From: a virus
Lineage: Duplodnaviria; Heunggongvirae; Uroviricota; Caudoviricetes
Strand: one strand, 5' to 3'
IMG/VR virus record: IMGVR_UViG_3300015214_000024
Span: 9,787-73,786 of that record
DNA length: 64,000 nt
The position numbers and the translations under genes were made by a program. This document shows positions 2,388-57,663 of the stretch, in pieces. A model generated the notes under the pieces. That model searched no databases, was not told the origin of the DNA, and was given only the letters and a program-made list of their open reading frames with translations. Within the stretch, counting starts at the first letter, position 1; each line of letters starts with the position of its first letter.

Positions 2388-2978
2388 ATGGCTACTGCAA
2401 TTGAAAAGCTTCAGAATGTTATCGCCAAGGTCGGTGATGTCGACAACGCCGGCGAGATGATCGCACAGGGCATCAAGGCTCGCAAGAAGGCGGACCTGAA
2501 GGTGTTGGGCTTCACTGCAATGTCGGCGACGGTGGCAACGGACGAAGGCGACACGCTTCGCATCGTGTCCAAGCGTGATGCGGCTGATGCTCAGTTCCAG
2601 GGCTTTACGAAGCGCAAGACGTCCGTTATGTTACCCAAGACCGAGACGGTGGCGGACCTGGATGGTTTCCGGATCGACAAGATCGAGCAGCTGGTGCCGC
2701 TGAAGACTGTCATCGGCGACGACAATGATGCATTCAACAGCTGGCTGGCTCGCTATGCAGGTGCTCGTTCGACGGGCAAGGCAACTCGCGGCGCTCGCGA
2801 TGAAGCTGCTCCGGCATCCGTTCAGAACATCGTCCACGTCGGCAACCTGCGCGGTCTGGTCAACAAGATGGTCCAGTTCAATGCCGGCGCAATGGCGATG
2901 ACGTTCGATCGCTTCTCGGTCCGCGAGAACCAGGACGGCACGAAGCAGATCGTGATTACCGATCCCTTCAACGCCTGA
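2388..2978 (+). CDS. hypothetical protein (196 aa), strong RBS, GC-rich codon usage
   Basis: AAGGAGAT RBS; clean ORF; 9-bp hairpin GGGAGTCAA/TTGACTCCC downstream (2985-3030). Confidence 0.7.
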   Translation: MATAIEKLQNVIAKVGDVDNAGEMIAQGIKARKKADLKVLGFTAMSATVATDEGDTLRIVSKRDAADAQFQGFTKRKTSVMLPKTETVADLDGFRIDKIEQLVPLKTVIGDDNDAFNSWLARYAGARSTGKATRGARDEAAPASVQNIVHVGNLRGLVNKMVQFNAGAMAMTFDRFSVRENQDGTKQIVITDPFNA

Positions 2979-3052
2979 AACAAAATGGGAGTCAATGAAA
3001 TAAAGTAGTTGACTCCCATTCATCCAGGCCATAGAAGACGAATATCAAATGG

Positions 3053-5494: not shown

Positions 5495-5572
5495 GCAGGC
5501 GTAGTGCTCAGTGGCAGAGCCGGGGTCTCTAAAACCCGTCGGTCGTGGGTTCGATGCCCACCGCTTGCACCA
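5495..5572 (+). tRNA. tRNA with anticodon CUA (candidate amber suppressor), CCA encoded; atypical 4-nt spacer between acceptor and D stems
   Basis: acceptor GCAGGCG/CGCTTGC (one G-U), D-arm GCTC-AGTGGCA-GAGC, anticodon loop CUCUAAA, T-arm GTGGG-TTCGATG-CCCAC, A73-CCA, then T5. Confidence 0.5.
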
Positions 5573-5587
5573 TTTTTAGGAGGTTGA

Positions 5588-5821
5588 ATGGTTGACATTA
5601 AAATCGTTTTTGACCGAAAACTAGACATTGTTGAGCTAGAAGTCTTAGCGGCGAAATTTCGGTCTGGAATGTCAACCCATACTTCTTATAAAAAAAAGCC
5701 ATATGTATCTGGTTTAGCCAACACTGCGGTTATTTCAATACCCAAAAAGCATCTTTATAGTGTTATTAACTATCTTCTTACTTTCCCTGAAATCAAATAT
5801 GCGGATCCAATGTATGACTGA
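5588..5821 (+). CDS. hypothetical protein (77 aa)
   Basis: AGGAGG RBS. Confidence 0.6.
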   Translation: MVDIKIVFDRKLDIVELEVLAAKFRSGMSTHTSYKKKPYVSGLANTAVISIPKKHLYSVINYLLTFPEIKYADPMYD

Positions 5822-6197
5822 AAATGATGTCGTAAACAGTCAAGCATTCAAAGTCATCAACCTGATGATTGACCAGAAGGCTGAAGAACTCAAGCGATAT
5901 ATGCTCGGTCTCAAGGACCGTACTGAGATTCTGTTCCGTGAACAGAAATATCCTCCAGCCGTTCGCACTCGCATCCATTGTGAAAATCCTCGCAATAGTG
6001 GTGCCTACACAGCACTTCCAGCCCACCCCCACGAGGTCAAAGACCTTCAGCACTACCTAGATTCAATCGCCACGTTGGAGAAGGAAATCAACGAACTCCA
6101 GAAGATGAAATGTCGCTTGACTGGCGACTGGGATTTCACTAATGGTGATACATCCGATATGGAAGCCGTTTTTGGCGAAAAGATTGAAGGTATGTGA
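5814..6197 (+). CDS. hypothetical coiled-coil protein (127 aa)
   Basis: ATGACTGA overlap with upstream stop. Confidence 0.5.
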   Translation: MTENDVVNSQAFKVINLMIDQKAEELKRYMLGLKDRTEILFREQKYPPAVRTRIHCENPRNSGAYTALPAHPHEVKDLQHYLDSIATLEKEINELQKMKCRLTGDWDFTNGDTSDMEAVFGEKIEGM

Positions 6198-6772
6198 TGT
6201 ACATCAAGAATTTCCTTAACAAGAATATGTGCTCGAAGTATTTCGAGATGTTCTGGAATGACCTTGATTGGGAGCGTCGTCCGGATGCTCCGCGTCGCGA
6301 ATATTGGACTAACCTGTATGACCGCGATTATACATATGGCCGAGGTGCTGGCATTCGCACCTATCAGGCCCGTGAAGGACACCCAGATATTTGGGCTATC
6401 GGAACCTATTCAGAAATGGAAGCCTTTGACCACGGTATGATGGACAATGGCCAGATGTTTGAGGGGTGCTTCCTCAATGGTTACGAAGGGGCAAGGGACT
6501 GGCTGGGCTGGCACGCCGATGACGATCCAGCTATCGATCACAGTAAGCCTATCGCCATCGTGACACTGTATCGTGAGCCCGAGAAGAAGCCGCGTGTAAT
6601 CCAGTTCAGGGACAATGCTACGCAGACAGTTGAATCTGTCGAACTACACCACGGCTCCTTGTATTTGATGCCGCCCGGTTTTCAGTTTACACATCAGCAT
6701 CGAATCCCTAAAGCGGGATTTGAATGCAGTGACCGGATCTCCCTCACATTCAGGGGCTTAGTAAAAAACTAA
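6197..6772 (+). CDS. alkB: AlkB-like 2OG-Fe(II) dioxygenase (nucleic acid demethylase)
   Basis: HxD (GWHADDD), distal His (FTHQHRIP) and RISLTFR motif; TGATG coupling. Confidence 0.75.
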   Translation: MYIKNFLNKNMCSKYFEMFWNDLDWERRPDAPRREYWTNLYDRDYTYGRGAGIRTYQAREGHPDIWAIGTYSEMEAFDHGMMDNGQMFEGCFLNGYEGARDWLGWHADDDPAIDHSKPIAIVTLYREPEKKPRVIQFRDNATQTVESVELHHGSLYLMPPGFQFTHQHRIPKAGFECSDRISLTFRGLVKN

Positions 6773-21933: not shown

Positions 21934-22335
21934 TTAACGATCGCGGCGGTAATAACCCCGGCGGCGATCATATTCACGATCACGATTTCGATAGTAGTGA
22001 CGATAGCCGTAGCCATTGTCCTGATACCAACGATCCCGATAATAATAGCCGTCTTCGCGGTAATAGTAGCCCTGATACCAGTAGCATCCTTCTGAGAAAT
22101 AACGACTCTCATAGGGAGAACGTAAATGCTCCCATTGATCATAGCCATCACGCTCACGTTGATTGGATAATGCCAGTCCGAGAATTACACCAGCAACACC
22201 AACTGCAACGACCGTTCCAGCATCTGCACGGCCACGATGATCGTGATATGGATTTTGCTGCCAGCGTTGATGAGCCATAGCAGGAGTTGTCAGTGCTACT
22301 GATGCCATAAGGGCTAAAGCGACGAGTTTTTTCAT
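21934..22335 (-). CDS. secreted low-complexity Arg/Tyr/Gly/Asp-rich protein
   Basis: signal peptide MKKLVALALMASVALTTPAMA; GGAG RBS; YYYRDRWYQDNGYGYRHYY repeats. Confidence 0.55.
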   Translation of the reverse strand: MKKLVALALMASVALTTPAMAHQRWQQNPYHDHRGRADAGTVVAVGVAGVILGLALSNQRERDGYDQWEHLRSPYESRYFSEGCYWYQGYYYREDGYYYRDRWYQDNGYGYRHYYRNRDREYDRRRGYYRRDR

Positions 22336-22392
22336 AAACCTATCTCCTATACGTTTATCGTATATAGTAGCACTGACAACTTTAATCAAGCC

Positions 22393-23076
22393 TTAATTGC
22401 CAGCCTCCATTGCTTCATAATCGAGGTCCAGTTTCAGCTTAGTACGAAGGCCATCAAAGCCGTCGTAAAGCATATATGTGGTATGAAGCTCTGGAGTGAA
22501 TTCGATCTTAATTAGCGTCGTCGCTCCTTCAGTCATTTCCTCAACTTGCTCACCTTGCTTGTTGGTTACCATCACCCAAGCATTGCCGGCAGCAGAAAGA
22601 CGATTCAACTTACCCAGCACTGGTTTGTGGGCGCGTTTGGGCTTGCAAATAACCCAATCACCTACCTTGATAGTGTTGCCCAGCATATCAGGCACAGCCG
22701 TTTCCTTAATAACTGCTTTAGGTTTGCCCTTCTCAAACTTGACGACGTGGCCGCCAGTATAACCGACAAGAAATTTATGATTGTTATGGTATGCTTTGAT
22801 ACCAACTTTGATCTGCTTTGCAGGCTTATCACCTTCTGCAGGCGAAACTTCTACCAATATCGACCGATCCAGATAAACATTTCCTGAATATCCGGTTGTT
22901 TGGAATATAGTAGGATCGACCACCTTAGCAATGGAACCTTCCCGGGCACCATCTTGAAATTCGTACCAAATGTCCTCACCATTATTAGCAGCATCAATCA
23001 GCTTTCGATAAGGATGCTCTTCCGGCTTACCATAATGGTACGTCTGCCGCGCGGTCACAATAACTGATTCAACCAA
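22393..23076 (-). CDS. hypothetical protein, paralog of 49050..49844
   Basis: shared GAR.GSIA.V..P..IF...TGY.G and C-terminal motifs. Confidence 0.6.
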   Translation of the reverse strand: MVESVIVTARQTYHYGKPEEHPYRKLIDAANNGEDIWYEFQDGAREGSIAKVVDPTIFQTTGYSGNVYLDRSILVEVSPAEGDKPAKQIKVGIKAYHNNHKFLVGYTGGHVVKFEKGKPKAVIKETAVPDMLGNTIKVGDWVICKPKRAHKPVLGKLNRLSAAGNAWVMVTNKQGEQVEEMTEGATTLIKIEFTPELHTTYMLYDGFDGLRTKLKLDLDYEAMEAGN

Positions 23077-23371
23077 TTGTTTTCTCCTGAAAATGCCAGA
23101 TCCTTATAGCAAATCTGGCATACATATGCAAGCCAAAACTTATTCTTGGTGTTCTGCAGGGGAGGTTTTGACCTTAATTGATGCCTTTGGGAATTCCTCC
23201 AAAATATTTTTCTTGGCGATTCTTACTTGCTGTTCTGAAAAACAAGTAATTACGTGCAAGACTTCATTATTAGGACCGTAAGCAACTACGGCGTGAATTA
23301 AGGCAGACATCAACAGGCCTCCAGAGGGTTGTAGTTCAATATCTATACTACAGTTTTGTTACAATGTCTAC

Positions 23372-24136
23372 TTAGTTAGTCAATCCGACGTGGAAATGTA
23401 CCGGATAAATGCTCATATCGTGATCAGTCATCTGCATAGCAGTTGCCAGACTTTCATCAACGTCAATTTTAACACCGTAGATAGTGTTGGTAATTTCCTT
23501 GCCGCCGGAATTGAGCCCAACCCGGATAACTGTGCCGCCTTCAGTAGGACGACACCCATTAACTGTGAGGGCGTCGTCGTGCATTTTCACGTAGGTAAAT
23601 TGTGCTTGCTTCTCAGAGCGTTTCCCGGTGTAGCGAAGCATCCTGAACGGGCTTCCAGTTTGCTTTAACTCAAACGGGCCACTATACATAAGGACATAGT
23701 CACCGTCTACAATTTCACGGCCGAAAAAGTCAACCAAGTTTTTGGCTGCGTTCTTTTCCTTCTTGACGATTTCTGTTTGGCGATCACCACCAATGACAAT
23801 CGAGAAAGGGTATTCGCGGCCATAGCGCGGTATTGCTTTCCGGAGACGGAATTGGAAGTTCCGATTAGTTCCTTCAGCAGTTCCTTCCCAATAATGGTCT
23901 TCGTTAATGTTGGGGCCATATTGGACGCTTCTGAACACTTTAGCAAGGTCGGACGGTCGTCGATACTTATTCACCTTCAAGCGCACAGTTGAACCGGCGA
24001 AAGTGCCATATGGTACAGTGAAATATACAGGAACATCTGCCTCGATGGCTTCCTGGATTATCGCATTGATATTCGTCAGATCTTCAATCTTTTTGCGACA
24101 AAAATTACGATCAACGTGAAATACTTTTTCTTCCAT
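23372..24136 (-). CDS. hypothetical protein (254 aa)
   Basis: AAGGAG RBS before MEEKVF; terminator upstream. Confidence 0.6.
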   Translation of the reverse strand: MEEKVFHVDRNFCRKKIEDLTNINAIIQEAIEADVPVYFTVPYGTFAGSTVRLKVNKYRRPSDLAKVFRSVQYGPNINEDHYWEGTAEGTNRNFQFRLRKAIPRYGREYPFSIVIGGDRQTEIVKKEKNAAKNLVDFFGREIVDGDYVLMYSGPFELKQTGSPFRMLRYTGKRSEKQAQFTYVKMHDDALTVNGCRPTEGGTVIRVGLNSGGKEITNTIYGVKIDVDESLATAMQMTDHDMSIYPVHFHVGLTN

Positions 24137-24217
24137 ACCAATCTCCTTTGCATTATTCATACAAAAAGGGCCGGCACGTGTCAATCACGAACCGACCCTA
24201 TTGGAAAGGTAACGATA

Positions 24218-24892
24218 TTAGTCGTTATTGCTGAAAATACCCATAATGCGCAGGATATACAGGAACATATTGACAAAGTCCAGATAAAGCTCGAGAGCGC
24301 CGGAAATTGCCATCACGTCATCGCCGTAACCTTGATTATAAAGGTCCTTGATCTTCTGTGTATCATAAGCTGCAAGTCCGGCAAATAGCAACACGCCAGC
24401 AAAAGAAACAGCAAGTGTAAACACAGTGCTAACGATAAACATATTGAGGATCAAGAGACCAATCATACCAAACAGTGCAATGGTAAAGAAAGATCCAAGG
24501 CTGCTCATATCAATCTTAGTCGTATAACCAAATAGACTCGTACCAGCAAAGCCGACAGCAGTAGCAAAGAATGCCTGAGCGATCAGTCCCAGCTTGTATG
24601 TGAGAAAGATAGTAGACATACTGGCGCCCATTGCTGCCGCCAGAGCAAGAAACAGAGCGCCGTGGACCATTGGATCACGTGGCAAAAGCCACATACCCAA
24701 AAGTGCAGCAAATGGTGACAGGATGACAGCCCAAGTCATTACCGGCGATGCCAGCATCGCAACAGTAGCACCGCTGGTGAACATAGCCCAAGCAACGCCA
24801 CCAGTGAGAACGAGACCAAGTGTCATCCAATTGTAGACCTTGAGCATAAAGCTGCGCAAGCCTGAATCATAGGAAACAGTAGCAGTAGTCAT
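24218..24892 (-). CDS. Bax inhibitor-1/YccA family membrane protein
   Basis: 7-TM; C-terminal AAYDTQKI..LY..G.......ALELYLDF.N.F family signature. Confidence 0.7.
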   Translation of the reverse strand: MTTATVSYDSGLRSFMLKVYNWMTLGLVLTGGVAWAMFTSGATVAMLASPVMTWAVILSPFAALLGMWLLPRDPMVHGALFLALAAAMGASMSTIFLTYKLGLIAQAFFATAVGFAGTSLFGYTTKIDMSSLGSFFTIALFGMIGLLILNMFIVSTVFTLAVSFAGVLLFAGLAAYDTQKIKDLYNQGYGDDVMAISGALELYLDFVNMFLYILRIMGIFSNND

Positions 24893-24906
24893 TTTCAAAT
24901 TCCTCC

Positions 24907-25569
24907 TTAAAGGATAATTGTGCAGATAATCAGTGCAGAGATGCCAGTAGTAATAAGACCGCCAAGTGCGCCGCTCCACCAAATTTCATCGGCATCGCGG
25001 TATTGGTATTCTGTCACATACTTCTTATTCATTAGTCCAAACAACACAGGCTTGGTCTCGAATGCTTTCGGAGTGCGACGAAAAGTATTCCACACCTTAA
25101 AGAAAGCGAACCAAATCGTGATCACGAACGGAATGCCGATGACAATCCCGCCCAGCTTAGACCAGAAAAGATAAATGGTAATGAGGATGCCGGCTGGTGT
25201 GCGAAGGAAGTCATTGACTGCAATGCCTAGTTCCTTTGCAGTCTGCCCAATAGCCGACCCAAACTCCTTGGCAAGGCCTGCCCATTCCCTGACATTATCA
25301 GGACTCAAAGTCTCACCAACAGGGGCGGCTGCCTTGACTGAATCGCAGGCGCGGCGGACATTGATAATGTCCTGATCTGACATCTGGCTGATATCGAGAG
25401 CATTACAATTAAGTGATGCACCGTCTGGCCCTTTAACCATAGCGGTTGCAACCGTACCAACAGCAGCGCCAGCAGCAGCCGAAACAGCAGTAGATGTGTC
25501 ATCAGCAAAAGCTGGAGTGGTGATGGCCATAGCAGCAGCCAACATAGAAATCAGAGCAAACTTACGCAT
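24907..25569 (-). CDS. secreted/membrane-anchored protein (signal peptide + C-terminal TMs)
   Basis: MRKFALISMLAAAMAITTPAFA signal. Confidence 0.55.
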   Translation of the reverse strand: MRKFALISMLAAAMAITTPAFADDTSTAVSAAAGAAVGTVATAMVKGPDGASLNCNALDISQMSDQDIINVRRACDSVKAAAPVGETLSPDNVREWAGLAKEFGSAIGQTAKELGIAVNDFLRTPAGILITIYLFWSKLGGIVIGIPFVITIWFAFFKVWNTFRRTPKAFETKPVLFGLMNKKYVTEYQYRDADEIWWSGALGGLITTGISALIICTIIL

Positions 25570-25625
25570 TTCATCTCCTTGCAAATATTCATTTTATCTA
25601 TACATTGTGTTGGCCCATTAGTCAA

Positions 25626-25979
25626 TCATTTTTGGATGATCAACCTACACCCTTCCTTGCAAGCATCGACTAGCCGATCATAAACGTCAGGCATAATGTT
25701 AATGCATCCATTAGTCACTCGAACTCTGACTGTTGGGTTATTAGCTTGGAGCCTCCAAACTCGACGCTCACTCGGCCTAAGTGTCCAAACACGATGAATA
25801 GCAAAAACTGTGGAAGGAGATTCATCATACTTCAAGACATCGCCACCATATCCAGGCGATTCAGTATAGCGACGGATGATCTGATACGTTCCAGGAGTCG
25901 TGCGATCGCCCACCAATGCTGGGTAGCACTGATGGGCGAAGCATAGGGTCGCAGCAGTTAAGCTAACGAAAATGTCCAA
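25626..25979 (-). CDS. L,D-transpeptidase (YkuD) catalytic-domain protein
   Basis: TPGTYQI...AIHRVW...TNGCINI motif. Confidence 0.6.
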   Translation of the reverse strand: MDIFVSLTAATLCFAHQCYPALVGDRTTPGTYQIIRRYTESPGYGGDVLKYDESPSTVFAIHRVWTLRPSERRVWRLQANNPTVRVRVTNGCINIMPDVYDRLVDACKEGCRLIIQK

Positions 25980-27770
25980 TTACTGGCCCACCGGCTTGGC
26001 TGGGACCTCGCGTTCGACTGGTACATACTTGACAGTACCAACTTCACACTGGGCAACCTGGATGTTAGTGACCAAGCGAGTGTTGCTTGAGCTGGTACCA
26101 AAGCCACCCTGTCCCCAGGATTGGTTGCCACCACCGCCACCAATTGCGAGGTTACCACCACCGCTGATGCCGATCACAGTTGAGAACATCACAACCTGGC
26201 TGCCGAAGAGACGGTAGCCTGAACCATCTGGAAGTGCAACCTGACGGTAGTCGACAATGTTGCCATCCTTGTCAGTGTATGGTGCAAGGTCGTAAGTGAA
26301 TCCCTGGTCAACCTTGGACTTGCCAATGAGACCACTACGGGTTCCGACAATCGGAGTCTTCACGACAGTCTGGAGCGGACCACAAGCAAGGGTTTCCTTG
26401 ATGATGTTACCGATAGCAACCTGGCTTGGCGGAGTTGCTGGAACGACTGGCGGGATGAACAGCGTCTTGCTTGAATAGTTCGTAACACTGCGGTCAGATG
26501 CATCAACGCTGGTGGTGTTACCCTGAGCGGCATTTGACGAATTATTGCCGGCGTTCGTCTGGGTTGACTTGCTGTTATTGCCAGCGTTTGACTGGTTGGT
26601 CGAATTTGACGAATTGTTACCAGCGTTGGTCTGAGATGCCGAAGCATTTTGCGTTGCCTTGCTGTTATTGCCTTCGTTCGTCTGCGACGTAGCACCAGTG
26701 GTCATCGATGCGTTGTTACCAGCATTGGTCTGCGTAGTAGCACCTGTGCTCACAGCAGTGTTCTGCTTATTACTGTTGGCGCTTGATGCATCAACATTGT
26801 TGCGCTGATCAGCAGTAGTGTTGTTAGACACTTCAGTATTCTGACCCTGAGCATTAAGCTGGCCTTGTGTGTTACCACCAGAGTAACTGTTGCCCGAATC
26901 CTTTACAGCACCACCGGCTGAATAGCTGTTGCCACCAGTGAGTGTTTGGTCACCACCAGTTACACGAGTATCGCCTTCGAGGATAGTGGTGTCGACGCCC
27001 AGCTTAACATCCTGGCTACCAGCAACAGTGTTGCCCGAACCGTTACCATTGGCGTTAGCGTTCTGCATCTGGCCCTGGGCGTTACCGAGGGTGTTTCCGC
27101 CGGAGTTGGAACCGCTGATCGACTTAGAGTCGTTGTTGAAGTCGTTGCCTGAACCGTTGCCATTGCCGCTGTTCGCGCCAGCGCCGGCCCCAGCTAGAGC
27201 ACCTGCCCCGGCGCCTGCATATTGACCAGCATTCTGGCCGGCGTTCTGACCAGCTTGAGTGCCAACATTACCGACTGACGAATTACCACCAAAGCCAATA
27301 CCGCCAGTTGCGTTGCCACCTTCAGCCTTGCCACCGGTTACCGTGCCATTGAAGTCGGAAGAGCCGCCATTACCGCCCATACCAACACCAACTCCGAGGC
27401 CGCCTGCGCCACCATTGGCTGTATTAGTGTTATTGATGTCGTTGCTGGAATTTCCAGACCCAATAGTGCCAGAAATGGCGCCGCTGGATGAATTAGATCC
27501 TGCAATTGCCCCTGCAGCCGCGCCAGCATTAGCATTTGATGTACCACCGGCTCCACCGTGACCGCCCTGGCCGCCGGTTCCACCATTACCACCATTACCA
27601 CCATTACCATCAGATGGCGGAGTAGGGGTCTGACAATGAGGATTGCCAGTATGCTTACCGTTACCACAAACGGAATCTGGCTTGTCACTGTCATTACCAT
27701 AAGTTGCATAGGCCGGTGAAGCAACTGCAAGAGCAGCCGTAGAAGCCATAAGAATTAAAATTGATCGCAT
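25980..27770 (-). CDS. large secreted Gly/Asn/Ser/Thr-rich low-complexity protein with structured C-terminal domain (596 aa)
   Basis: signal peptide MRSILILMASTAALAVASPAYA; GGNGGNGGTGG-type repeats; RBS. Confidence 0.6.
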   Translation of the reverse strand: MRSILILMASTAALAVASPAYATYGNDSDKPDSVCGNGKHTGNPHCQTPTPPSDGNGGNGGNGGTGGQGGHGGAGGTSNANAGAAAGAIAGSNSSSGAISGTIGSGNSSNDINNTNTANGGAGGLGVGVGMGGNGGSSDFNGTVTGGKAEGGNATGGIGFGGNSSVGNVGTQAGQNAGQNAGQYAGAGAGALAGAGAGANSGNGNGSGNDFNNDSKSISGSNSGGNTLGNAQGQMQNANANGNGSGNTVAGSQDVKLGVDTTILEGDTRVTGGDQTLTGGNSYSAGGAVKDSGNSYSGGNTQGQLNAQGQNTEVSNNTTADQRNNVDASSANSNKQNTAVSTGATTQTNAGNNASMTTGATSQTNEGNNSKATQNASASQTNAGNNSSNSTNQSNAGNNSKSTQTNAGNNSSNAAQGNTTSVDASDRSVTNYSSKTLFIPPVVPATPPSQVAIGNIIKETLACGPLQTVVKTPIVGTRSGLIGKSKVDQGFTYDLAPYTDKDGNIVDYRQVALPDGSGYRLFGSQVVMFSTVIGISGGGNLAIGGGGGNQSWGQGGFGTSSSNTRLVTNIQVAQCEVGTVKYVPVEREVPAKPVGQ

Positions 27771-27838: not shown

Positions 27839-28513
27839 TTAGGCAACAAAAACGCAATAAGATTTCATTTCTGGGGTCGGACTATTGACATATTGAATAT
27901 ATCTAGGATCGTATTCCAACGCTTTCCATATGTCATCTTCTGTCTGATCAGACAAATATTGGAAATAAGATGTATCGTTTTCAAAGGCTTCGCGGCGAGC
28001 GCGTGGGCACCATTCAATTCTTCGATCACATATTAGTGAAGGCTTCTTGCGAATAGCAATGATTTGGAATTCTTCGTCAGCCGTCGCAGAATTTAAAATA
28101 GTGTCTGGATTTTCTTCAAACAGCAACTTCCAAAGACTACGTGATGGATTTTTGATCTTTTTAAACACCTGACCAGCAGTCAAGGTCCCGTGCTTTGCGG
28201 CTGCCATCTGAACCGTCTCTGTTGGCTCATCAATAAAGCCAATCAGACCAGGGTCTTCATAGATCGCCTTCAGGCATTCATCCTCGGTAGGATTTGCAAT
28301 GTATTGGATATTGGCGTGGTTGATCGCAAGAAGAATCTGTCTCAAAATAGGAGTGCGATCAACCTTTTCTTTTTTCGAAATCCATTCAGTCAGCTTATCA
28401 GCTTCGTGCTTAGTAAGCTGATTTGGCGGGACCATTTTGTTCACCAGATATTCCAGTCCTGCCTCAGGCAGGATGGTTATCATATTAAAAAGATCTCGAA
28501 TGGACATCGTCAT
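27839..28513 (-). CDS. DUF4116-like repeat protein (paralog 1 of 5)
   Basis: repeats; C-terminal PEMKSY motif shared with neighbours. Confidence 0.6.
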   Translation of the reverse strand: MTMSIRDLFNMITILPEAGLEYLVNKMVPPNQLTKHEADKLTEWISKKEKVDRTPILRQILLAINHANIQYIANPTEDECLKAIYEDPGLIGFIDEPTETVQMAAAKHGTLTAGQVFKKIKNPSRSLWKLLFEENPDTILNSATADEEFQIIAIRKKPSLICDRRIEWCPRARREAFENDTSYFQYLSDQTEDDIWKALEYDPRYIQYVNSPTPEMKSYCVFVA

Positions 28514-28544
28514 ACATCACCTATATGGTGACGCGTGTCATATG

Positions 28545-29333
28545 TCAACCACAAATAATAGCAGTAGCAATCATTTCTGGAGTTGGATCGTTTATAAAAT
28601 CAATCGACTTAGGTTGGTTCATAATAGCTGACCACTTGACTGACCGGCTAGGAGATTTAACTCGTGAAATGTTAGATGGGCCGTGCTTGACATATTCTAT
28701 TGATGCTGCCTCTGGCGGGTTTTTGATTTTGAGATAATAGCTAGGGTCATTGGCAATAGCAATAACCATAGCTTCTGGACAAGGACGACGTATTGAACGA
28801 ATAAGATGATGATTCTTATTCATTGCATAAAGTTGTTCAGCTACAGTTGGATTACTAATGTGCTGGATGTTTTCTGGATAACGCTCAAGTGCTATCTTAC
28901 GCACAGTTTTGGTTGGATGCTTGAAGAAACAAAACGACATCGGTGCCGAACGTAATGCAAGCATCTGTAATTCAGTCGTCTGTTGCTTAACAAACTGAAT
29001 TGCGTTACCGTCATTACCTACCGCAGCAAAAATCATCGCCTTCGTAGGATTACGAAAGTTTTGAAGATTCATACCATACAACGCACAAGATTTAACAAGT
29101 GCGTCTGGATGAATGTTCCGAATCATCTTATAAGCATTCTTTGGATCTTTTTCAATAGCAAAGAGCTGAAGATCTGTCTCAGGATAGCGGATGAACTGAA
29201 TTGCTTTCCAGTTGTTAGTTACTGCTACAAGCTGGACTGGTCGTGGAGGATTCTTCATCCACTTGATAGCGAGCGGATCAGAAGCCAATTTCAGTATAGC
29301 TTGCTCAATCTCCGTCTGAGACCAGCTTTGCAT
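28545..29333 (-). CDS. DUF4116-like repeat protein (paralog 2)
   Basis: NPPRPVQLVAV..NWKAIQFI repeats. Confidence 0.6.
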   Translation of the reverse strand: MQSWSQTEIEQAILKLASDPLAIKWMKNPPRPVQLVAVTNNWKAIQFIRYPETDLQLFAIEKDPKNAYKMIRNIHPDALVKSCALYGMNLQNFRNPTKAMIFAAVGNDGNAIQFVKQQTTELQMLALRSAPMSFCFFKHPTKTVRKIALERYPENIQHISNPTVAEQLYAMNKNHHLIRSIRRPCPEAMVIAIANDPSYYLKIKNPPEAASIEYVKHGPSNISRVKSPSRSVKWSAIMNQPKSIDFINDPTPEMIATAIICG

Positions 29334-30048
29334 AGCTTACCATCTCCGGTGAAGGATTTCGAATCTTCTTGATGAGAGTCCCATCAGCGTAGAGAGCAGC
29401 CCAACAGCATTCTTCAGTCTGATTGACCATAAGCTCAATCTGATCAGGGTATTCAGTAATATGACGCAGAGCAATGTCTTCGTCAATCTCGTTCAAATAA
29501 TGGATGCCATCATCTGGACGTTCTTTGAGGATGAATTCCTGATGATCACGATGAGGATGCTTAACCCATTCAATTGAACAAGGATTTTCCTTGATCATCA
29601 TCGCGACCATTTCATATGTAGGCTCATTGATGAACTGAGCATTTTTGTGATCGTGTCCAATCGCAATTACTTGCAACACGTGATCTGGATTCTGAATGTG
29701 CTTGATGGCATCACCATCACGAGTAACTGCTCGATGCTGTTGAGCGTACGAAGGATTTTCGATGAGGCTAATACAATTGCCATTGATACTAATGGCTGAA
29801 TCAAGGACCTTCTGATCAATGTCAGAGATCATTTCGACCAATTCAAAGATACCATCGCGATCGATATAGCCCTGTGCCTTGATGGCTTCCTGCTGCTCAA
29901 GCACAGTAGGATTATCAAAATACTGGATAGCTGTAGGAGAACGCTGGATAGCCGCCATACGGAAATCTTCGTCAATTAGATCCTTGGGGACCATCCTGAC
30001 GAGGTTACCATTTTGTTTGATCAAGTTCAGGGCGTATTCGCGGTCCAT
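29305..30048 (-). CDS. DUF4116-like repeat protein (paralog 3)
   Basis: LIKQNGNLVRMVP...AIQRSPTAIQYF repeats. Confidence 0.6.
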   Translation of the reverse strand: MDREYALNLIKQNGNLVRMVPKDLIDEDFRMAAIQRSPTAIQYFDNPTVLEQQEAIKAQGYIDRDGIFELVEMISDIDQKVLDSAISINGNCISLIENPSYAQQHRAVTRDGDAIKHIQNPDHVLQVIAIGHDHKNAQFINEPTYEMVAMMIKENPCSIEWVKHPHRDHQEFILKERPDDGIHYLNEIDEDIALRHITEYPDQIELMVNQTEECCWAALYADGTLIKKIRNPSPEMVSYAKLVSDGD

Positions 30049-30096
30049 AACAATTCCTCTAAATTTCCATATCTATACTGGATTAATTGTTATGCG

Positions 30097-30750
30097 TCAA
30101 CCACAAAGTATAGCGTAGCTTTTCTGTTCTTTGGTCAGGTTCATAATTCCATATTCTTGCGGGAATTCTTGAACCAAATCCCACCATTGATCAGTGGTTA
30201 GATTGTGATTCTTGAGATCAATTTTGCCGCGGCGGAATGATTGATTCTTACCCATAGCTATTGCCAGCTTGATAGCATAGACATCGGCATTAACAACCTC
30301 ATTGATTAAAGAATAATTATCATCCAATGCCAATAGTTGGGCATCAAGGCACGGATGTTTGATTCGAGTTATAGCTTTCGAAATGTTGGCTACTGCTGCC
30401 TTTTGAACAGTTTCAGACGGTTCTACGATCAAACCAACTAAAAGGCCATTCTTTGAAATAGCCTCAAGCTGGACTTCTTCATCCGGATCTGGAATATATT
30501 TGAGAGCTCGGGGGTCATTCCTGACAGCAAAGAGCTCAATAGACTTATCCTGTTTCGGGAGGCCACGCAAAGCAACGATATTTCGTTTGATGGCCAACTT
30601 GACCAATTCGGGACTCGGATTGTCCAGATGCCAAATGACCTGATAATTGATTTCAACAGCCTTAACCAGGAACTCTGGCGAGGGGTTTTGTATTCGAGAA
30701 ATTTGGGTCGGATCATTCCGTATCCGACCCAGCTGTAACGTTTTCAACAT
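30097..30750 (-). CDS. DUF4116-like repeat protein (paralog 4)
   Basis: repeats; C-terminal EQKSYAILCG. Confidence 0.6.
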   Translation of the reverse strand: MLKTLQLGRIRNDPTQISRIQNPSPEFLVKAVEINYQVIWHLDNPSPELVKLAIKRNIVALRGLPKQDKSIELFAVRNDPRALKYIPDPDEEVQLEAISKNGLLVGLIVEPSETVQKAAVANISKAITRIKHPCLDAQLLALDDNYSLINEVVNADVYAIKLAIAMGKNQSFRRGKIDLKNHNLTTDQWWDLVQEFPQEYGIMNLTKEQKSYAILCG

Positions 30751-53041: not shown

Positions 53042-55354
53042 ATGAAGATTGAAGAAGCAGGCGTTGAGACTTTCTCGCTTGGTCAGAAGGAAGTTTCCGT
53101 TGCCAAGATCCAAGCAAGTGCCAAAGCGTTTGAGATCCTGAGCTCAAGCCTTTATTCCAACAACATTCTCGCAATCATCCGTGAGCTTTCTGCAAATGCG
53201 AAGGACTCGCACAAGGCTGCTGGCTGCCCTGAGAAGCCGTTTGACATTCAGCTGCCCAATAAGCTGGACCCTAGCTTCAAGGTTCGTGACTACGGTGTAG
53301 GTATGGATCATCAATTCGTGATGACTCGCCTGAACACTTACTTCGATTCTACCAAGAACGACAGTAATGAAGAAATCGGCGGCTTCGGTCTCGGCATCAA
53401 GTCAGGCTTCAGCTATACTTCCAGCTATATGATCGTCACATTCGACGGCACGACACGCCGTGTCTACGCTTTCCAGATCGGCGCCAGCGGACTTCCTGAG
53501 ATCAGCTTCCTGGCTGAAACTCCGTCGACTGAGCCTCGCGGTGTTGAGCTCAGCATTCCGGTTATGGACAAGGACTATGACCGCTTCCGCGAAGAAGCTA
53601 TCGAAGCTCTGACGTTCTACGAACCCAAGCCCAACATCAGCGGCGTTGATGCTTCCGCGTTCGACATTAAGCCTTTGTTCCAAGGCACTGGCTGGAAGAT
53701 TTACCAGAATCCTGGCCGCCTCAAGAATGAAAACTATGTCGAGATGGGCAATGTGATCTATCCGGTCATTGAAGAAAACAATCCTTACGACGAATCTCGC
53801 CACTACCGCCACCATCGCCGCGGCCGCGGCGCAGATATGATTATGGTCTATAGCGCCGGCATTGGTGAGATTGACATCACTCCGAACCGCGAGCAGATCA
53901 AGCTGACCGATCGATCCAAGGCCCGAATCACCAAGTTTGAAGAAACGGTAACTGAAGAATTGATGGCCACTATCCAAGGCTGGCTGGATAAGGAAACTGG
54001 TACGCTTTGGGAAGTCCTGCGCGGCGATACGGTGCGCCGTATCCACGACCAGTCCTACTTCTTCGAGAGCCGCAAGGTTGATCTGAAGAAGCTCAAGTAT
54101 AAGGGCTATCAGATTATGGTCGGCGAGTTCCGTTATACTGAAAAGAGCCCGGCTGCTGACAAGGTGGTAAAAGGTCACACCTTGCAAGAGCAGTATGGCG
54201 AGATTCGTATGGATGAGCATCGGATGGCTCATTATGGCATCCAAATCTCAGCCCGGCATTCGGAAAGCGTTGGTATCATTATTGGCACTCCTGGTTGGAC
54301 GGCGAAACTGAACCAAGCCGGCGCTCGTAAGTTGATCAATCAGACAAAGAAGGTGCTTTATCTGCTCGACGTCAAGGCTGCTGATCAGGCCGATGTTATT
54401 GCCGGTCTCAATAAAACCTTCCCGGACTTTGCTGATAACATTTACAATTGGGATGATTTCAAAGCTGGGATCAAGGCAGCCAAGCCGGAAAATGACTACT
54501 ATACTTATGACCTGAAGGATGGTAACTCACGTTATTATAATGAAGGTAATAAGAAGGAGTTCAATATCAAGGACTTCAGCAAGAAGAAGACCATTTATTA
54601 TGGCACGTATAAGCCTAAGGCAAATAACCTTAGGAATTACCATTACAACCGCGAGTCGACGCGAATTCAGGAAATCTTGAGTAGCTGTTATGACGAGACC
54701 TATGATGAGATCCTGGCCAAGCTGAACGGCGAGAAGGTTGTATATGCTTTCCTTGAATCCCAGGTCAAGGAACTGGAAGCTGCAGGATTCAAGCTGGTGG
54801 ACTTTGTTACCACTTTCGAAGAACTGCTCCATCAGGTCGCCGTTGAATTTGCTGCTGAACGTCCTACAATGACGCTGAAGGAATACCTGAAGCCGTTGCA
54901 GGAAAAGAACCCTGAGATTAGCATCTCCACGTTCTACAAGGCAGTGAAGCGTTGGGCCCGCGAATGCGGTATGGAGGACGAGTATCAGCTTCTCCTCAAG
55001 CTGAACGACCCGTCATCATCCTCTTACCGTGCCTCGGCTAATGACCAGCTGTTCCGCCAGGTTCACAAGATGACCATCAAGGAATATGTGAAGAAGCACA
55101 ACCTCAAGCCGGCCAAGCCGACCAGTAACCAGTTCGCGATCGACCTCCGTGACAAGGCCCCGCTGCTCAGCTACTTGATCACTCGCTATAGCGTCCCTGA
55201 TGTTATTGATTATGTGAAGAAGGAAGTGGCTGGTATTGTGAAGGCTCCTGCTCCGGCTGCTACCGTGAAGGCTCCGCCAAAGCGTAAGCCTAGGCCGCAA
55301 CCGGTGGTGATTCAGACCATCAACCCGTTGTCGCTTATCCCGACAGCACAGTAA
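53042..55354 (+). CDS. rIIA: rIIA-like protein (GHKL ATPase N-domain), paralog 1 (770 aa)
   Basis: collinear with T4 rIIA: ASAKAFEILSSSLYSN, IRELSANAKDS (N-box), VRDYGVGM (G1), IGGFGLGIKS (G2). Confidence 0.8.
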   Translation: MKIEEAGVETFSLGQKEVSVAKIQASAKAFEILSSSLYSNNILAIIRELSANAKDSHKAAGCPEKPFDIQLPNKLDPSFKVRDYGVGMDHQFVMTRLNTYFDSTKNDSNEEIGGFGLGIKSGFSYTSSYMIVTFDGTTRRVYAFQIGASGLPEISFLAETPSTEPRGVELSIPVMDKDYDRFREEAIEALTFYEPKPNISGVDASAFDIKPLFQGTGWKIYQNPGRLKNENYVEMGNVIYPVIEENNPYDESRHYRHHRRGRGADMIMVYSAGIGEIDITPNREQIKLTDRSKARITKFEETVTEELMATIQGWLDKETGTLWEVLRGDTVRRIHDQSYFFESRKVDLKKLKYKGYQIMVGEFRYTEKSPAADKVVKGHTLQEQYGEIRMDEHRMAHYGIQISARHSESVGIIIGTPGWTAKLNQAGARKLINQTKKVLYLLDVKAADQADVIAGLNKTFPDFADNIYNWDDFKAGIKAAKPENDYYTYDLKDGNSRYYNEGNKKEFNIKDFSKKKTIYYGTYKPKANNLRNYHYNRESTRIQEILSSCYDETYDEILAKLNGEKVVYAFLESQVKELEAAGFKLVDFVTTFEELLHQVAVEFAAERPTMTLKEYLKPLQEKNPEISISTFYKAVKRWARECGMEDEYQLLLKLNDPSSSSYRASANDQLFRQVHKMTIKEYVKKHNLKPAKPTSNQFAIDLRDKAPLLSYLITRYSVPDVIDYVKKEVAGIVKAPAPAATVKAPPKRKPRPQPVVIQTINPLSLIPTAQ

Positions 55355-55433
55355 AAATAGTTCAATTTAAGGCTTGCAATTGGTGCCCCGTCCTGTATAA
55401 GGGCGGGGTAAACCATTCAACAAGGGATTAGAA

Positions 55434-57608
55434 ATGAAGATTGAAGAGCAGAAGGTTCCCACGTTCAATGTTGGACGCAAGGAAACGGCAGTTGCCTCGA
55501 TCCAGGCCAGTGCGAAGGCTTTTGAAATCCTTAGCTCGGGCCTCTACAGCGATGCTGAGTTTGCCATCGTGCGCGAGATTGCTGCTAACGCTTGGGATAG
55601 CCACAAGGCTGCTGGTTGCCCCGAGAAGCCCTTCAAAGTGCAGGTCCCTAACGGACTTGATCCTCGTTTCTGTGTCCGCGACTACGGCACAAGTATGTCA
55701 CACGAGTTTATGATGACTCGGGTTAACCGCTATTTCGATTCTACGAAGGCGGAAAACAACGACGAAATTGGCGGCTTTGGACTTGGCATCAAGAGTGTGT
55801 TCAGCTATGCCTCCAGCTTTATGATTTCCTGCTATATGGACAGCGTCCGCCGCGTTTATGTTTACCAGATTGGCGAAAGTGGCCTGCCTGAGATCAGCTT
55901 GATGGCTGAGACTGAGACTGACGAGCCAAATGGCGTGGAAGTCAGCATTCCGGTCAAGAGCGAAGACTATCAGAAGTTTTCAATCGCTATCCAGAAAACG
56001 TTTGCCTTTTATAAGGTCAAGCCTGAAATTGCTGGCGTGGAACTGGCCATTCCGGAATTTGACAAGCTTCTGGAAGCTGACGACTGGTTCGTTTGCCGTT
56101 GTCAGAGCATTTTCAATAAGGCTTCTTATATCGAGATGGGCGGCATTGCTTATCCGCTGGACGAACAGCTGACTGGCCTGCGTTCCTATTACAGTAACCA
56201 CCACACTCTGTTCATCAAGGCAGAGATTGGCGATGTTGATATCACTCCGAACCGTGAACAGATCAAGATGACTGAGCGCACTCGCAGATTTGTCAAGGAC
56301 AAGTTGAAGACCATTAACGACCAGGCTGAGAGCATTATCCAGGATCTGATCGATGCCCAAGGCCACACGTATTATTGGGACTTCATTGCTGAAGTGGTCA
56401 AGTATGATATTGATCTGCTCCGCAGCATCGGCTTCTCCAAATCCAAGATCACGTTCAATGGAAAGAAGTTTGACGACAATACGTTCACTATCCGTATTGC
56501 TCCCAAGCCGGCTCCTGAAGATCCAATGGATCCTAATTCGCCGATCAAGCAGCCTACCCTTACGCCGGAAATGGTCGAAGGCATCACCCGCTTTGGTGAA
56601 TGGTCACTGCACGATAGTGGTCGAGTTAAGAAGGATGAAGATCGCTGGAGTTATCAGAATGCTTGGAATTTTGATCGCTTCAACAAGCCGCGTCCGATTG
56701 TGGTCGCTGACGAAGCTTCAGTTCGTCGTATTGCCCCTTGGATGCGTTACAGCGATACTGACAAGATCATCCTGGTCAAAGTCGAGCCCGGTAAGATCAC
56801 TGATGTGATGGCCGCAATCAAGGAGCGTCTTCAGGACTTCAACAACATCCACGATGCTTCCACCGTGCATTTCGAGAAGGCACCGAGGGCTGCGGCTGCT
56901 GAGCGCAAGTATTATATGTACCACACCAGCACTTGGAATGAAGTTGTCCGCAAGGAAATGGATCTCGGTTCACTACCTAATGAGATCTACTATTTCCAGA
57001 CCGATGGCCGCCAGCGTAGTGAAGTGTTTGGCCGCACTACGGACTTTAACAAGGATGCGTCATTCATTGCAGTGGCTAGGACTTGGATCCCGAATGTTAG
57101 CTTTTACTTCCTCACAGAAGCAATGATCAAGAAGATTGAAAAGGCCAATCCTTCGGCAGTTTTGATCGAAACATCTGCCAAGCTGGCTGAAATGCTTGAC
57201 GACAAGGTTCGTGAAGCTGGGCAGAATTATGTTTCCCGCAGCCTTGAGGATATCAAGGCACCATTTGCTCGCTCGGGCGGCAGCTGGCGGACAGCATCTG
57301 CTCTTGACTTTTGGGCCAAAGAGTTCAATTTGTCCGATTATGAACAGGCAAAGAAGGATCTCGAAACCCACAAGCCGGATAGCAGCCTTGAGAAGATGTG
57401 CAAGCTGATCAAAGGCAAGACCATCTTCGAAATGTTCACAGAGCTTGGTGTCAATACGCGCAACGTCACTGTACCGAGCTTTGATAATATGCTGGCAAAG
57501 ATGCCTTATGTCTTTGCAATGGTTGATGACTATTCCGAGGAAGAAGTTGTGAACCATATTGGCGAAACGATGGGCTGGAAAAGAAACACCCAGCCTGTCA
57601 CAATTTGA
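55434..57608 (+). CDS. rIIA: rIIA-like protein, paralog 2 (724 aa)
   Basis: same GHKL motifs; similarity to paralog 1 is strongest in the N-terminal region that was compared. Confidence 0.8.
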   Translation: MKIEEQKVPTFNVGRKETAVASIQASAKAFEILSSGLYSDAEFAIVREIAANAWDSHKAAGCPEKPFKVQVPNGLDPRFCVRDYGTSMSHEFMMTRVNRYFDSTKAENNDEIGGFGLGIKSVFSYASSFMISCYMDSVRRVYVYQIGESGLPEISLMAETETDEPNGVEVSIPVKSEDYQKFSIAIQKTFAFYKVKPEIAGVELAIPEFDKLLEADDWFVCRCQSIFNKASYIEMGGIAYPLDEQLTGLRSYYSNHHTLFIKAEIGDVDITPNREQIKMTERTRRFVKDKLKTINDQAESIIQDLIDAQGHTYYWDFIAEVVKYDIDLLRSIGFSKSKITFNGKKFDDNTFTIRIAPKPAPEDPMDPNSPIKQPTLTPEMVEGITRFGEWSLHDSGRVKKDEDRWSYQNAWNFDRFNKPRPIVVADEASVRRIAPWMRYSDTDKIILVKVEPGKITDVMAAIKERLQDFNNIHDASTVHFEKAPRAAAAERKYYMYHTSTWNEVVRKEMDLGSLPNEIYYFQTDGRQRSEVFGRTTDFNKDASFIAVARTWIPNVSFYFLTEAMIKKIEKANPSAVLIETSAKLAEMLDDKVREAGQNYVSRSLEDIKAPFARSGGSWRTASALDFWAKEFNLSDYEQAKKDLETHKPDSSLEKMCKLIKGKTIFEMFTELGVNTRNVTVPSFDNMLAKMPYVFAMVDDYSEEEVVNHIGETMGWKRNTQPVTI

Positions 57609-57663
57609 TTGACGCATTAAACAAAATGCCGTATTACGGTAGCACCAACTAAGGAGGTTTTGA

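Follow-up and report, generated by a model that had tools for sequence, protein, structure and literature searches.

Covalent tethering of envelope proteins to peptidoglycan has, to our knowledge, been established for Lpp and a few others, in every case through housekeeping L,D-transpeptidases (LDTs); nor do we know of any sorting signal recognised for it beyond the terminal lysine. In OutB of Dickeya dadantii, a six-residue C-terminal 'Lpp box', by definition one whose reactive lysine is the C-terminal residue, suffices for an LDT to attach a reporter to the wall (PMC12274547). Brucella, Agrobacterium, Coxiella and Legionella, which have no Lpp, use LDTs to tether outer-membrane β-barrel proteins and lipoproteins covalently to meso-diaminopimelate (mDAP; summarised in PMC12729407). 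These links employ N-terminal residues or internal lysines of proteins that are otherwise ordinary, and we know of no report that ascribes to them a sorting-type tail or a dedicated enzyme encoded alongside. Small YkuD-type proteins may also work elsewhere, ElsL (LdtK) of Acinetobacter baumannii being a cytoplasmic, leaderless L,D-carboxypeptidase of muropeptide recycling (PMC8649774). Here we describe a pair of genes in a 64,000-nucleotide stretch of a Caudoviricetes genome (positions 9,787 to 73,786 of IMG/VR record IMGVR_UViG_3300015214_000024; the window). On its minus strand, within positions 21934-27770, a gene for a Gly/Asn-rich exported protein (the cargo) directly precedes one for a small YkuD-type enzyme (the mini-YkuD); coordinates are collected in Table 1. 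As judged from sequence, this cassette of tailed cargo and mini-YkuD, which is common to bacteria and phages and lacks a family model, is most likely a dedicated wall-tethering system.

The two genes keep close company. A tblastn search with the enzyme found it in 13 of 50,697 phage records; these belong to Xanthomonas, Stenotrophomonas and 'Erwinia' phages, the smallest being 96-kb siphoviruses and the largest the 385-kb XacN1. The same search with the cargo C-terminal domain returned exactly these 13 records, and in every one of them, XacN1 and DLP_5 included, the cargo gene lies directly upstream of the enzyme gene. IMG/VR yielded 39 viral contigs with the enzyme, and a scan of bacteria, at one genome per species, gave 31 enzyme loci, distributed among Sphingomonadaceae, Erythrobacteraceae, Caulobacteraceae, Burkholderia, Oxalobacteraceae, Neisseriaceae, Acinetobacter and Cellvibrionaceae. 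The window's own cargo family stands directly upstream of the enzyme in 23 of the 31 (in one of which the cargo is cut off at a contig end), at spacings of -4 to +57 nt. The chromosomal loci that we looked at are non-prophage settings among housekeeping or metabolic genes, and we saw no genes of a secretion system there. For example, the cargo gene of a 588-kb bacterial scaffold has a TonB-dependent receptor on one side and an M28 peptidase on the other, with purM, purN and ndk nearby, and that of Sphingomonas crusticola is surrounded by metabolic genes; in both cases it overlaps a mini-YkuD gene of 115-116 codons by 4 bp. These comparisons of gene order indicate that the Gly/Asn-rich protein and the mini-YkuD are a conserved two-gene cassette shared by phages and bacterial chromosomes. 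We found no literature specific to the cassette, to phage YkuD genes or to ORF390/391 of XacN1.

In the window, the TTG start of the enzyme directly follows the TAA stop of the cargo. Production of a cargo-enzyme fusion by read-through, using a tRNA of the window with a CTA anticodon (see below), was considered and is ruled out: the stop codon is TAA, and the relative frames of the two genes vary from locus to locus (-4, -1, 0 and +50-60 nt).

The cargo consists of 19.6% glycine, 12.6% asparagine and 11.2% serine. A signal peptide occupying residues 1-22 (MRSILILMASTAALAVASPAYA, followed by T), of type I and with no lipobox, precedes a small Cys loop (C35 to C46), about 380 residues of low complexity rich in Gly, Asn, Ser, Ala and Thr, a β-rich C-terminal domain and a short tail. 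The initial annotation had spoken of extreme low complexity, which is apt for the skewed composition but not for the DNA, where tandem arrays are absent save for one 9-bp × 3.3 repeat. No fold relative of the β-rich domain is detectable and the domain is rare, with 23 relatives (counted as clusters) among 5.8 billion proteins. The tail, with its Lys592, is found on no other protein of the window, and we propose it as a candidate recognition and attachment signal. No NCBIfam model matches cargo or enzyme, and no cargo has a Pfam family except those of a Neisseriaceae type, described below, with its BamE domain.

These features bear on the suggestion, made in the initial annotation, that the 596-residue protein might be a virion fibre or adhesin. 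Gly-rich low-complexity proteins do occur among phage fibres. However, the cargo has a cleavable-type Sec signal peptide, its homologues occupy non-prophage chromosomal loci, its gene in the window is surrounded by non-structural accessory genes, and it is constantly paired with the enzyme; the main text of the XacN1 paper, moreover, does not mention ORF390 or ORF391. We regard a role as fibre or adhesin as extremely improbable.

The mini-YkuD is distant from described LDTs in sequence and close to them in structure. It scores 21.5 bits against PF03734, just below the Pfam gathering threshold of 23.4, and 18 of 33 family members match that model at E ≤ 0.01; a sequence profile search of the PDB with the family returned only chance matches to ribosomal protein L28. 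An AlphaFold2 model has a mean predicted local distance difference test score (pLDDT) of 94.7 across all 117 residues. The top 39 Foldseek matches to it in the PDB are all LDTs, 34 matches have E ≤ 1e-3, and the best is Bacillus subtilis YkuD (1y7m; E 8e-7, TMq 0.67). His62 (encoded at 25794-25796) and Cys92 (25704-25706, in the motif T-N-G-C-I-N, which conforms to the (S/T)-x-G-C-(I/V)-(R/N) pattern of YkuD domains), whose loss had been named beforehand as the refuting test of the Ldt-like domain, are both retained on alignment, so that the YkuD-type assignment of the initial annotation is upheld. Across the family His62 is conserved in 180 of 181 sequences, Cys92 and G91 in 173 of 173 and N94 in 171 of 173, giving the motif T/S-x-G-C-I/V-N. 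By its scores against PF03734 the family is a divergent YkuD subfamily. A related YkuD domain that lacks the first two strands is seen in the middle of giant proteins of 1,200-3,700 residues (P0164, P0169, P0170, P0179, P0180, P0182, P0189-P0191 and others); three of the four examined contain the LPD38 'large polyvalent protein' domain, and the giants are probably proteins that phages or conjugative elements inject.

At many loci the gene upstream of the enzyme is not homologous to the window cargo, yet it almost always encodes an exported protein, and at least four non-homologous families of secreted or lipoprotein cargo lying directly upstream of the enzyme end in a common tail. Type 1, that of the window, combines signal peptide, low-complexity region and β-rich domain. 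Type 2 comprises proteins of 130-150 residues with the core LGSGTPG...PTAATIWPR. Type 3, from Neisseriaceae, is a lipoprotein that contains a BamE domain (PF04355, E 2.6e-15) and the lipobox LAAC (followed by GN), and it resembles the N-terminal part of TpgA. Type 4 (L052 and L066) has a different Cys-rich domain and type 5 (L061) is a Pro-Thr-repeat protein. Where the Neisseriaceae cargo has its tail, TpgA carries an OmpA-like domain that binds the wall non-covalently.

The tail consensus is roughly V-x-E-V-P-x-K-[KR]-[I]-[RGK]-[EQ]-COOH, the window protein ending in ...VPAKPVGQ. Among 60 cargos, lysine is found at position -5 from the C-terminus in 52; 42 have Lys or Arg at -4, 37 have Ile at -3, 52 have Arg, Gly or Lys at -2 and 49 have Glu or Gln at -1; further upstream, Val stands at -8 in 36 and Glu at -9 in 31. 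No hydrophobic helix follows the motif, the tail being made up of the motif and basic residues. A strict, end-anchored form of the motif is present in 43 of 65 distinct upstream proteins and in 3 of 1896 other open reading frames (ORFs) of at least 100 residues from the same loci, although it was defined on the very loci in which it was counted. Since it had been written after seeing the data, the count was repeated on non-homologous cargos with a motif derived from the window's cargo family only. This motif occurs in 12 of 35 such cargos compared with 2 of 1484 background ORFs (Fisher p 2e-19), and lysine at -5 in 30 of 35 compared with 62 of 1484 (p 5e-34). A functional link between tail and enzyme is, in our view, very probable.

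Two further arrangements of tail and enzyme were observed. P0064 and P0078 resemble single-chain fusions in which a lipoprotein signal and a Pro-rich linker lead to a tail-like EEPKK or IEVPP and then to the enzyme; these are either real fusions, implying self-processing, or gene-calling artefacts. IMG/VR contig L043 has two mini-YkuD genes (2433-3052 and 5577-6342), each after its own Lys-tailed ORF (ending …PPKKKKKG and …EVKKKGQ, respectively).

The compartment in which the enzyme works was approached through its N-terminus. In the AlphaFold2 model the first 20 residues form strands 1-3 of the fold (pLDDT 97), and by our reading of the alignment they correspond to the canonical start of the YkuD domain, 'I-x-V-d-L-s-x-q-x-L...YP-V-x-x-G'. 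A profile search of the full library gave 422 representatives at E ≤ 1e-3 and 131 at E ≤ 1e-10; 119 could be anchored on a Cys13/Cys18 motif. Ninety-two of these 119 begin directly with the fold, while 21 have an N-terminal extension of at least 15 residues that, in 18 of the 21 orthologue clusters, is a clear Sec or lipoprotein signal. The segment homologous to residues 2-14 differs between the two groups, with a Kyte-Doolittle mean of 2.14 ± 0.32 and 0.7 charged residues in leaderless enzymes against 0.97 ± 0.60 and 2.8 charges in extended ones (Mann-Whitney p 5e-9). The leaderless segment is as hydrophobic as the core of a signal peptide. The three extended enzymes that have no signal-like stretch retain the hydrophobic segment, which fits mis-called starts. 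Because of the signal-bearing orthologues and the opposite N-terminal hydropathy of the two groups, we infer that the family is periplasmic and that in leaderless members the first strands take the place of a signal peptide. The invariant Cys13/Cys18 pair, positioned across a tight hairpin, suggests a disulfide. Two other routes were considered and are ruled out: Tat-dependent hitch-hiking on the cargo, whose signal peptides have no twin arginine, and lipidation of the enzyme, in which the residue before Cys13 is Leu or Ile rather than part of a lipobox.

The comparison with ElsL, made by description only, is instructive for a second interpretation of the enzyme. Like ElsL, the mini-YkuD is a small, single-domain, leaderless YkuD protein; it differs in the signal-bearing orthologues of its family, the Cys hairpin pair, the signal-like N-terminus and the secreted neighbour. 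The initial annotation saw in the enzyme an agent of general peptidoglycan remodelling. Such an enzyme might form 3-3 cross-links, or show L,D-carboxypeptidase or endopeptidase activity towards the sacculus or, in the manner of ElsL, towards recycled muropeptides in the cytoplasm, the upstream gene being a mere neighbour. The YkuD fold with its intact His/Cys pair and the leaderless form are in keeping with this, as is the related domain of the giant LPD38 proteins, which probably act on the wall at entry. Yet general remodelling leaves unexplained both the common C-terminal tail of unrelated upstream proteins and the strict adjacency in 13 of 13 phages, and the export signals on 18 orthologue clusters argue against a cytoplasmic, ElsL-like role. 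We consider this interpretation improbable. Since the fixed unit is cargo plus mini-YkuD, the enzyme is more likely to be dedicated to ligating its neighbour to peptidoglycan than to be making 3-3 cross-links in general.

The same export signals count against a pairing of toxin and inhibitor, or effector and immunity protein, in which the mini-YkuD would damage the wall and the secreted partner would block its active site with the Lys tail. A YkuD-like enzyme that has no leader and is encoded beside a secreted protein does recall the type VI pair Tlde1/Tldi1, and a pseudo-substrate tail could sit on any scaffold. However, effectors delivered by contact would not be expected to resemble the many orthologous enzymes with Sec or lipoprotein signals of their own, and the cargos, with their long linkers, low-complexity regions or BamE lipoprotein domain, are large and varied, which would be odd for immunity proteins. 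The genomic settings described above, among housekeeping and metabolic genes and with no secretion-system genes seen, point the same way, and the enzyme has no Pfam match to the Tlde1 family. Such a pair is very improbable.

The reading that we prefer is that the mini-YkuD would be a dedicated periplasmic LDT which couples the tail lysine of its cargo to peptidoglycan in the manner of Lpp. We hold it with moderate confidence; the more specific matter of lysine-to-mDAP chemistry, argued by analogy with Lpp and LdtA/B/C, seems to us evenly poised. The cargo would be exported by Sec, bearing its short C-terminal tail, and the mini-YkuD would be produced by translational coupling to the cargo gene. 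Cys92 would form an acyl-enzyme with a tetrapeptide stem of peptidoglycan, and the ε-amine of the tail lysine would resolve it, leaving the cargo bound covalently to the sacculus. Bacteria would use the cassette to anchor various envelope proteins to the wall, such as the outer-membrane BamE-domain lipoprotein of Neisseriaceae, while in the phage a largely disordered Gly/Asn-rich protein of about 570 residues would be fixed in the host periplasm during infection. It is plausible that this serves envelope reinforcement or the exclusion of competing phages. The fold, the catalytic residues, the gene pairing, the tail common to unrelated cargos and the Sec or lipoprotein signals of some orthologous enzymes are observed; that the leaderless forms are periplasmic, that lysine is the acceptor and peptidoglycan its partner, and that the phage benefits, we infer.

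The cassette resembles both Lpp, with LdtA, LdtB and LdtC of Escherichia coli, and OutB in joining a YkuD-type enzyme to an envelope protein that has a short, Lys-containing C-terminal tail. The Neisseriaceae cargo, like Lpp, is also an outer-membrane-type lipoprotein, and the presence of the tail at its C-terminus supports an Lpp-like reading by analogy. In contrast to Lpp, the lysine is at -5 and not C-terminal, the tail is longer and has an E-V-P-x-K core, and the window cargo has no N-terminal lipid anchor. The enzyme, too, is different, a bare domain of 117 residues encoded beside its substrate rather than a housekeeping LDT serving multiple substrates. Finally, the cargos are diverse and the cassette, known here from sequence, is mobile between phages and bacteria. 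Like the tethering seen in Brucella and the others, it belongs mostly to lineages without Lpp, namely Alpha- and Betaproteobacteria and phages of Xanthomonadales.

Several points weigh against an Lpp-like tethering. The lysine lies four residues from the end of the protein and not at its C-terminus, as in known anchoring of the Lpp type, so that the tail falls outside the definition of an 'Lpp box'. The window enzyme has no classical signal peptide and its N-terminus is modelled inside the fold; ElsL, which is leaderless too, has been proven to act as an L,D-carboxypeptidase in the cytoplasm (PMC8649774). An adjacent tailed cargo is lacking at about 10-15% of enzyme loci. Last, the hold-out count given above only partly removes the circularity of the strict tail motif.

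The position of the lysine, taken together with the conserved last residue and the minimal enzyme beside its substrate, leaves room for a sortase-like or trimming reaction. The cargo tail would then be an acyl donor, cleaved within or after K-x-I-R-Q, and the new C-terminus would be passed to an amine on peptidoglycan, lipid or another subunit; or else the last four residues would be trimmed, exposing a C-terminal lysine for anchoring. The fixed spacing from lysine to C-terminus and the Glu or Gln that ends 49 of the 60 tails suggest that the C-terminal carboxylate is read, like that of the D-Ala leaving group in normal donors. The apparent cargo-tail-enzyme fusions, P0064 (...EIKEEPKK-DVFVNL) and P0078 (...TIEVPPAP...), would need cleavage, although they may be artefacts of gene calling. 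The diversity of cargos beside one enzyme is also as in sortase and exosortase systems. Indeed, both sortase/LPXTG and exosortase/PEP-CTERM systems place a short C-terminal signal on unrelated cargos and use a Cys transpeptidase that is often encoded nearby. The cassette differs from them in the YkuD fold of its enzyme, in a tail with no transmembrane (TM) helix and in its Gram-negative periplasmic setting, and its chemistry probably runs the other way, the tail accepting rather than donating. The most conserved tail residue is lysine, the classical acceptor. YkuD enzymes act on the bond between an L-centre and D-Ala, and we know of none whose donor is an all-L peptide made by ribosomes. On balance, a reaction of the sortase-like or trimming kind is distinctly unlikely.

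A bolder proposal, which we think unlikely, is that the cassette represents an unrecognised Gram-negative periplasmic sorting system composed of a portable tail, E-V-P-x-K-x-I-R-Q-COOH, by which any exported protein would be marked for covalent fixation, and a dedicated YkuD of 115 residues, possibly acting by sortase-like cleavage. Most of the enzymes would be exported without a cleavable leader, their first two strands serving as the Sec signal, and phages would have captured the system repeatedly to rebuild the host envelope.

If Lpp-like tethering by the cassette is true, the picture of peptidoglycan attachment would change to include a mobile cassette in which one minimal enzyme serves unrelated cargos through the tail that they have in common. 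Such a cassette would supply a genomic rule for predicting wall-anchored proteins in many bacteria without Lpp, such as sphingomonads, Caulobacteraceae, Burkholderia and Neisseriaceae, as well as a compact tag-and-ligase pair for anchoring periplasmic proteins. Jumbo and siphoviral phages, virulent or temperate, would decorate the host wall with proteins of their own. The cassette also raises a testable question about the export of a protein without a classical leader.

Table 1. Features of the cassette and of the genes that follow it, in window coordinates.
Feature	Position	Strand	Basis or description
Cargo gene, 596 residues	25980..27770	-	ORF, composition, homologues directly upstream of mini-YkuD elsewhere
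Cargo conserved C-terminal domain (last 179 residues)	25983..26519	-	All-β, long hairpins, two invariant Cys, Gly-rich hairpin
Cargo C-terminal tail, VEREVPAKPVGQ-COOH	25983..26018	-	Lys at -5 = residue 592, encoded 25995-25997
Mini-YkuD, 117 residues, predicted bare L,D-transpeptidase catalytic domain	25626..25979	-	Fold, catalytic residues, phrog_38499 E 8e-44
Membrane protein, 220 residues	24907..25569	-	Signal peptide, periplasmic part of about 110 residues, 2-3 TM segments; phrog_19575 E 1.6e-21
BI-1/TMBIM-family inner-membrane protein, 224 residues	24218..24892	-	PF01027, E 4e-52
Three soluble ORFs (270, 57 and 227 residues)	22393..24184	-	No signal peptide or TM segment; conserved in related phage contigs
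R/Y/G-rich protein, 133 residues	21934..22335	-	Signal peptide, Gly-rich TM segment at residues 39-57, 75-residue Arg/Tyr/Asp/Gly-rich tail

The initial annotation had presented the whole interval as one jointly acting cluster of six consecutive genes with signal peptides or multiple TM segments. All the minus-strand ORFs that it claimed are present, but eight co-directional minus-strand ORFs fill the interval. Hydropathy and N-terminal inspection assign a classical signal peptide or TM segment to four; three (22393-23076, 23140-23313 and 23372-24184) are soluble, each lacking any hydrophobic segment; and the eighth is the mini-YkuD, with no classical leader and no TM-like window. The likely true starts are at 27770 for the cargo, 25569 for the 220-residue protein (an ATG after AAGGAG) and 22335 for the 133-residue protein. 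An envelope-directed role for genes of the interval is plausible. The idea of a single cluster fares less well, given the three soluble ORFs and the fact that the BI-1 gene accompanies the pair only in the closest relatives (contigs L007-L009), being absent from contig L011, XacN1 and DLP_5. A homologue of the 220-residue protein adjoins the pair in L007-L009 and also, in a different order, in L011, and lies far from the pair in XacN1. Membership of the cassette is therefore ruled out for BI-1, the 220-residue protein and the R/Y/G-rich protein, none of which is beside the pair outside the closest relatives. By gene order the pair is the Gly/Asn-rich protein and the mini-YkuD, and these three are separate accessory membrane genes of the lineage.

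The BI-1 assignment proved correct, the protein scoring 177.3 bits against PF01027 (cut-off 34.1) over profile positions 1-207 of 207, with several TM-like peaks of hydropathy. It fails as a YccA equivalog in NCBIfam (NF007765, 22 bits against a cut-off of 353). Its phage clade comprises 17 clusters at 60-97% identity, after which there is a sharp drop to about 50%. Matches at the latter level that have a source name are all from Sphingomonadales (Sphingopyxis, Sphingomonas and Edaphosphingomonas), pointing to a sphingomonad host. On these sequence similarities, the gene was probably acquired from a sphingomonad, and the host of the phage is probably one also. Compared with all the sphingomonad homologues examined (241-247 residues), the phage clade, at 224 residues, lacks some 17 cytoplasmic residues at the N-terminus. 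YccA is a modulator of FtsH in E. coli. To begin the degradation of a membrane protein, FtsH requires some 20 residues of N-terminal tail, and N-terminally shortened YccA, the product of the E. coli yccA11 allele, resists FtsH. By analogy, the short phage BI-1 may be a stable, FtsH-resistant modulator of FtsH.

The R/Y/G-rich protein contains 15% Arg and 15% Tyr, and its TM segment is Gly-zipper-like (GTVVAVGVAGVILGLALS). The positive-inside rule suggests that it is probably anchored in the membrane, its Arg-rich tail facing the cytoplasm. Of the two low-complexity proteins that the initial annotation had called secreted, the cargo justifies the description by composition and signal peptide, whereas this one is not simply secreted. 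Relatives were found only in L007-L009, at 79% identity, and there was no match in isolated phages (by tblastn), Pfam, PHROGs or NCBIfam.

The window genome is that of a large phage of virulent type, with two rIIA paralogues, rIIB, RNA ligases and three tRNAs. A megablast search of the 50,697 phage records found no close DNA relative, and its nearest relatives are the metagenomic contigs L007-L009 and L011, which also keep the three soluble ORFs. L011 (CAZCMS010000007.1; 25 kb), syntenic with the window phage, is binned in a metagenome-assembled genome of 'Candidatus Saccharibacteria' and carries a repeat gene with weak DUF4116 similarity and the three soluble ORFs, as well as the cassette and the 220-residue membrane protein; the probable explanation is that a phage contig was mis-binned.

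At 5495-5572 on the plus strand lies a tRNA with anticodon CTA, reading amber UAG, which ARAGORN labels tRNA-Pyl. As TAG is the stop of 10 of the 96 non-overlapping ORFs of the window, some of its genes could be extended by read-through. The rII genes are also on the plus strand (53042-59184), as tandem full-length rIIA paralogues (770 and 724 residues) followed by rIIB (506 residues). The minus-strand genes at 27839-30750, immediately upstream of the cassette, are four consecutive paralogues (224, 262, 247 and 217 residues). The two that were scanned, 27839-28513 and 28545-29333, both match the repeat families phrog_5925 and phrog_17056, and the first also shows weak similarity to DUF4116.

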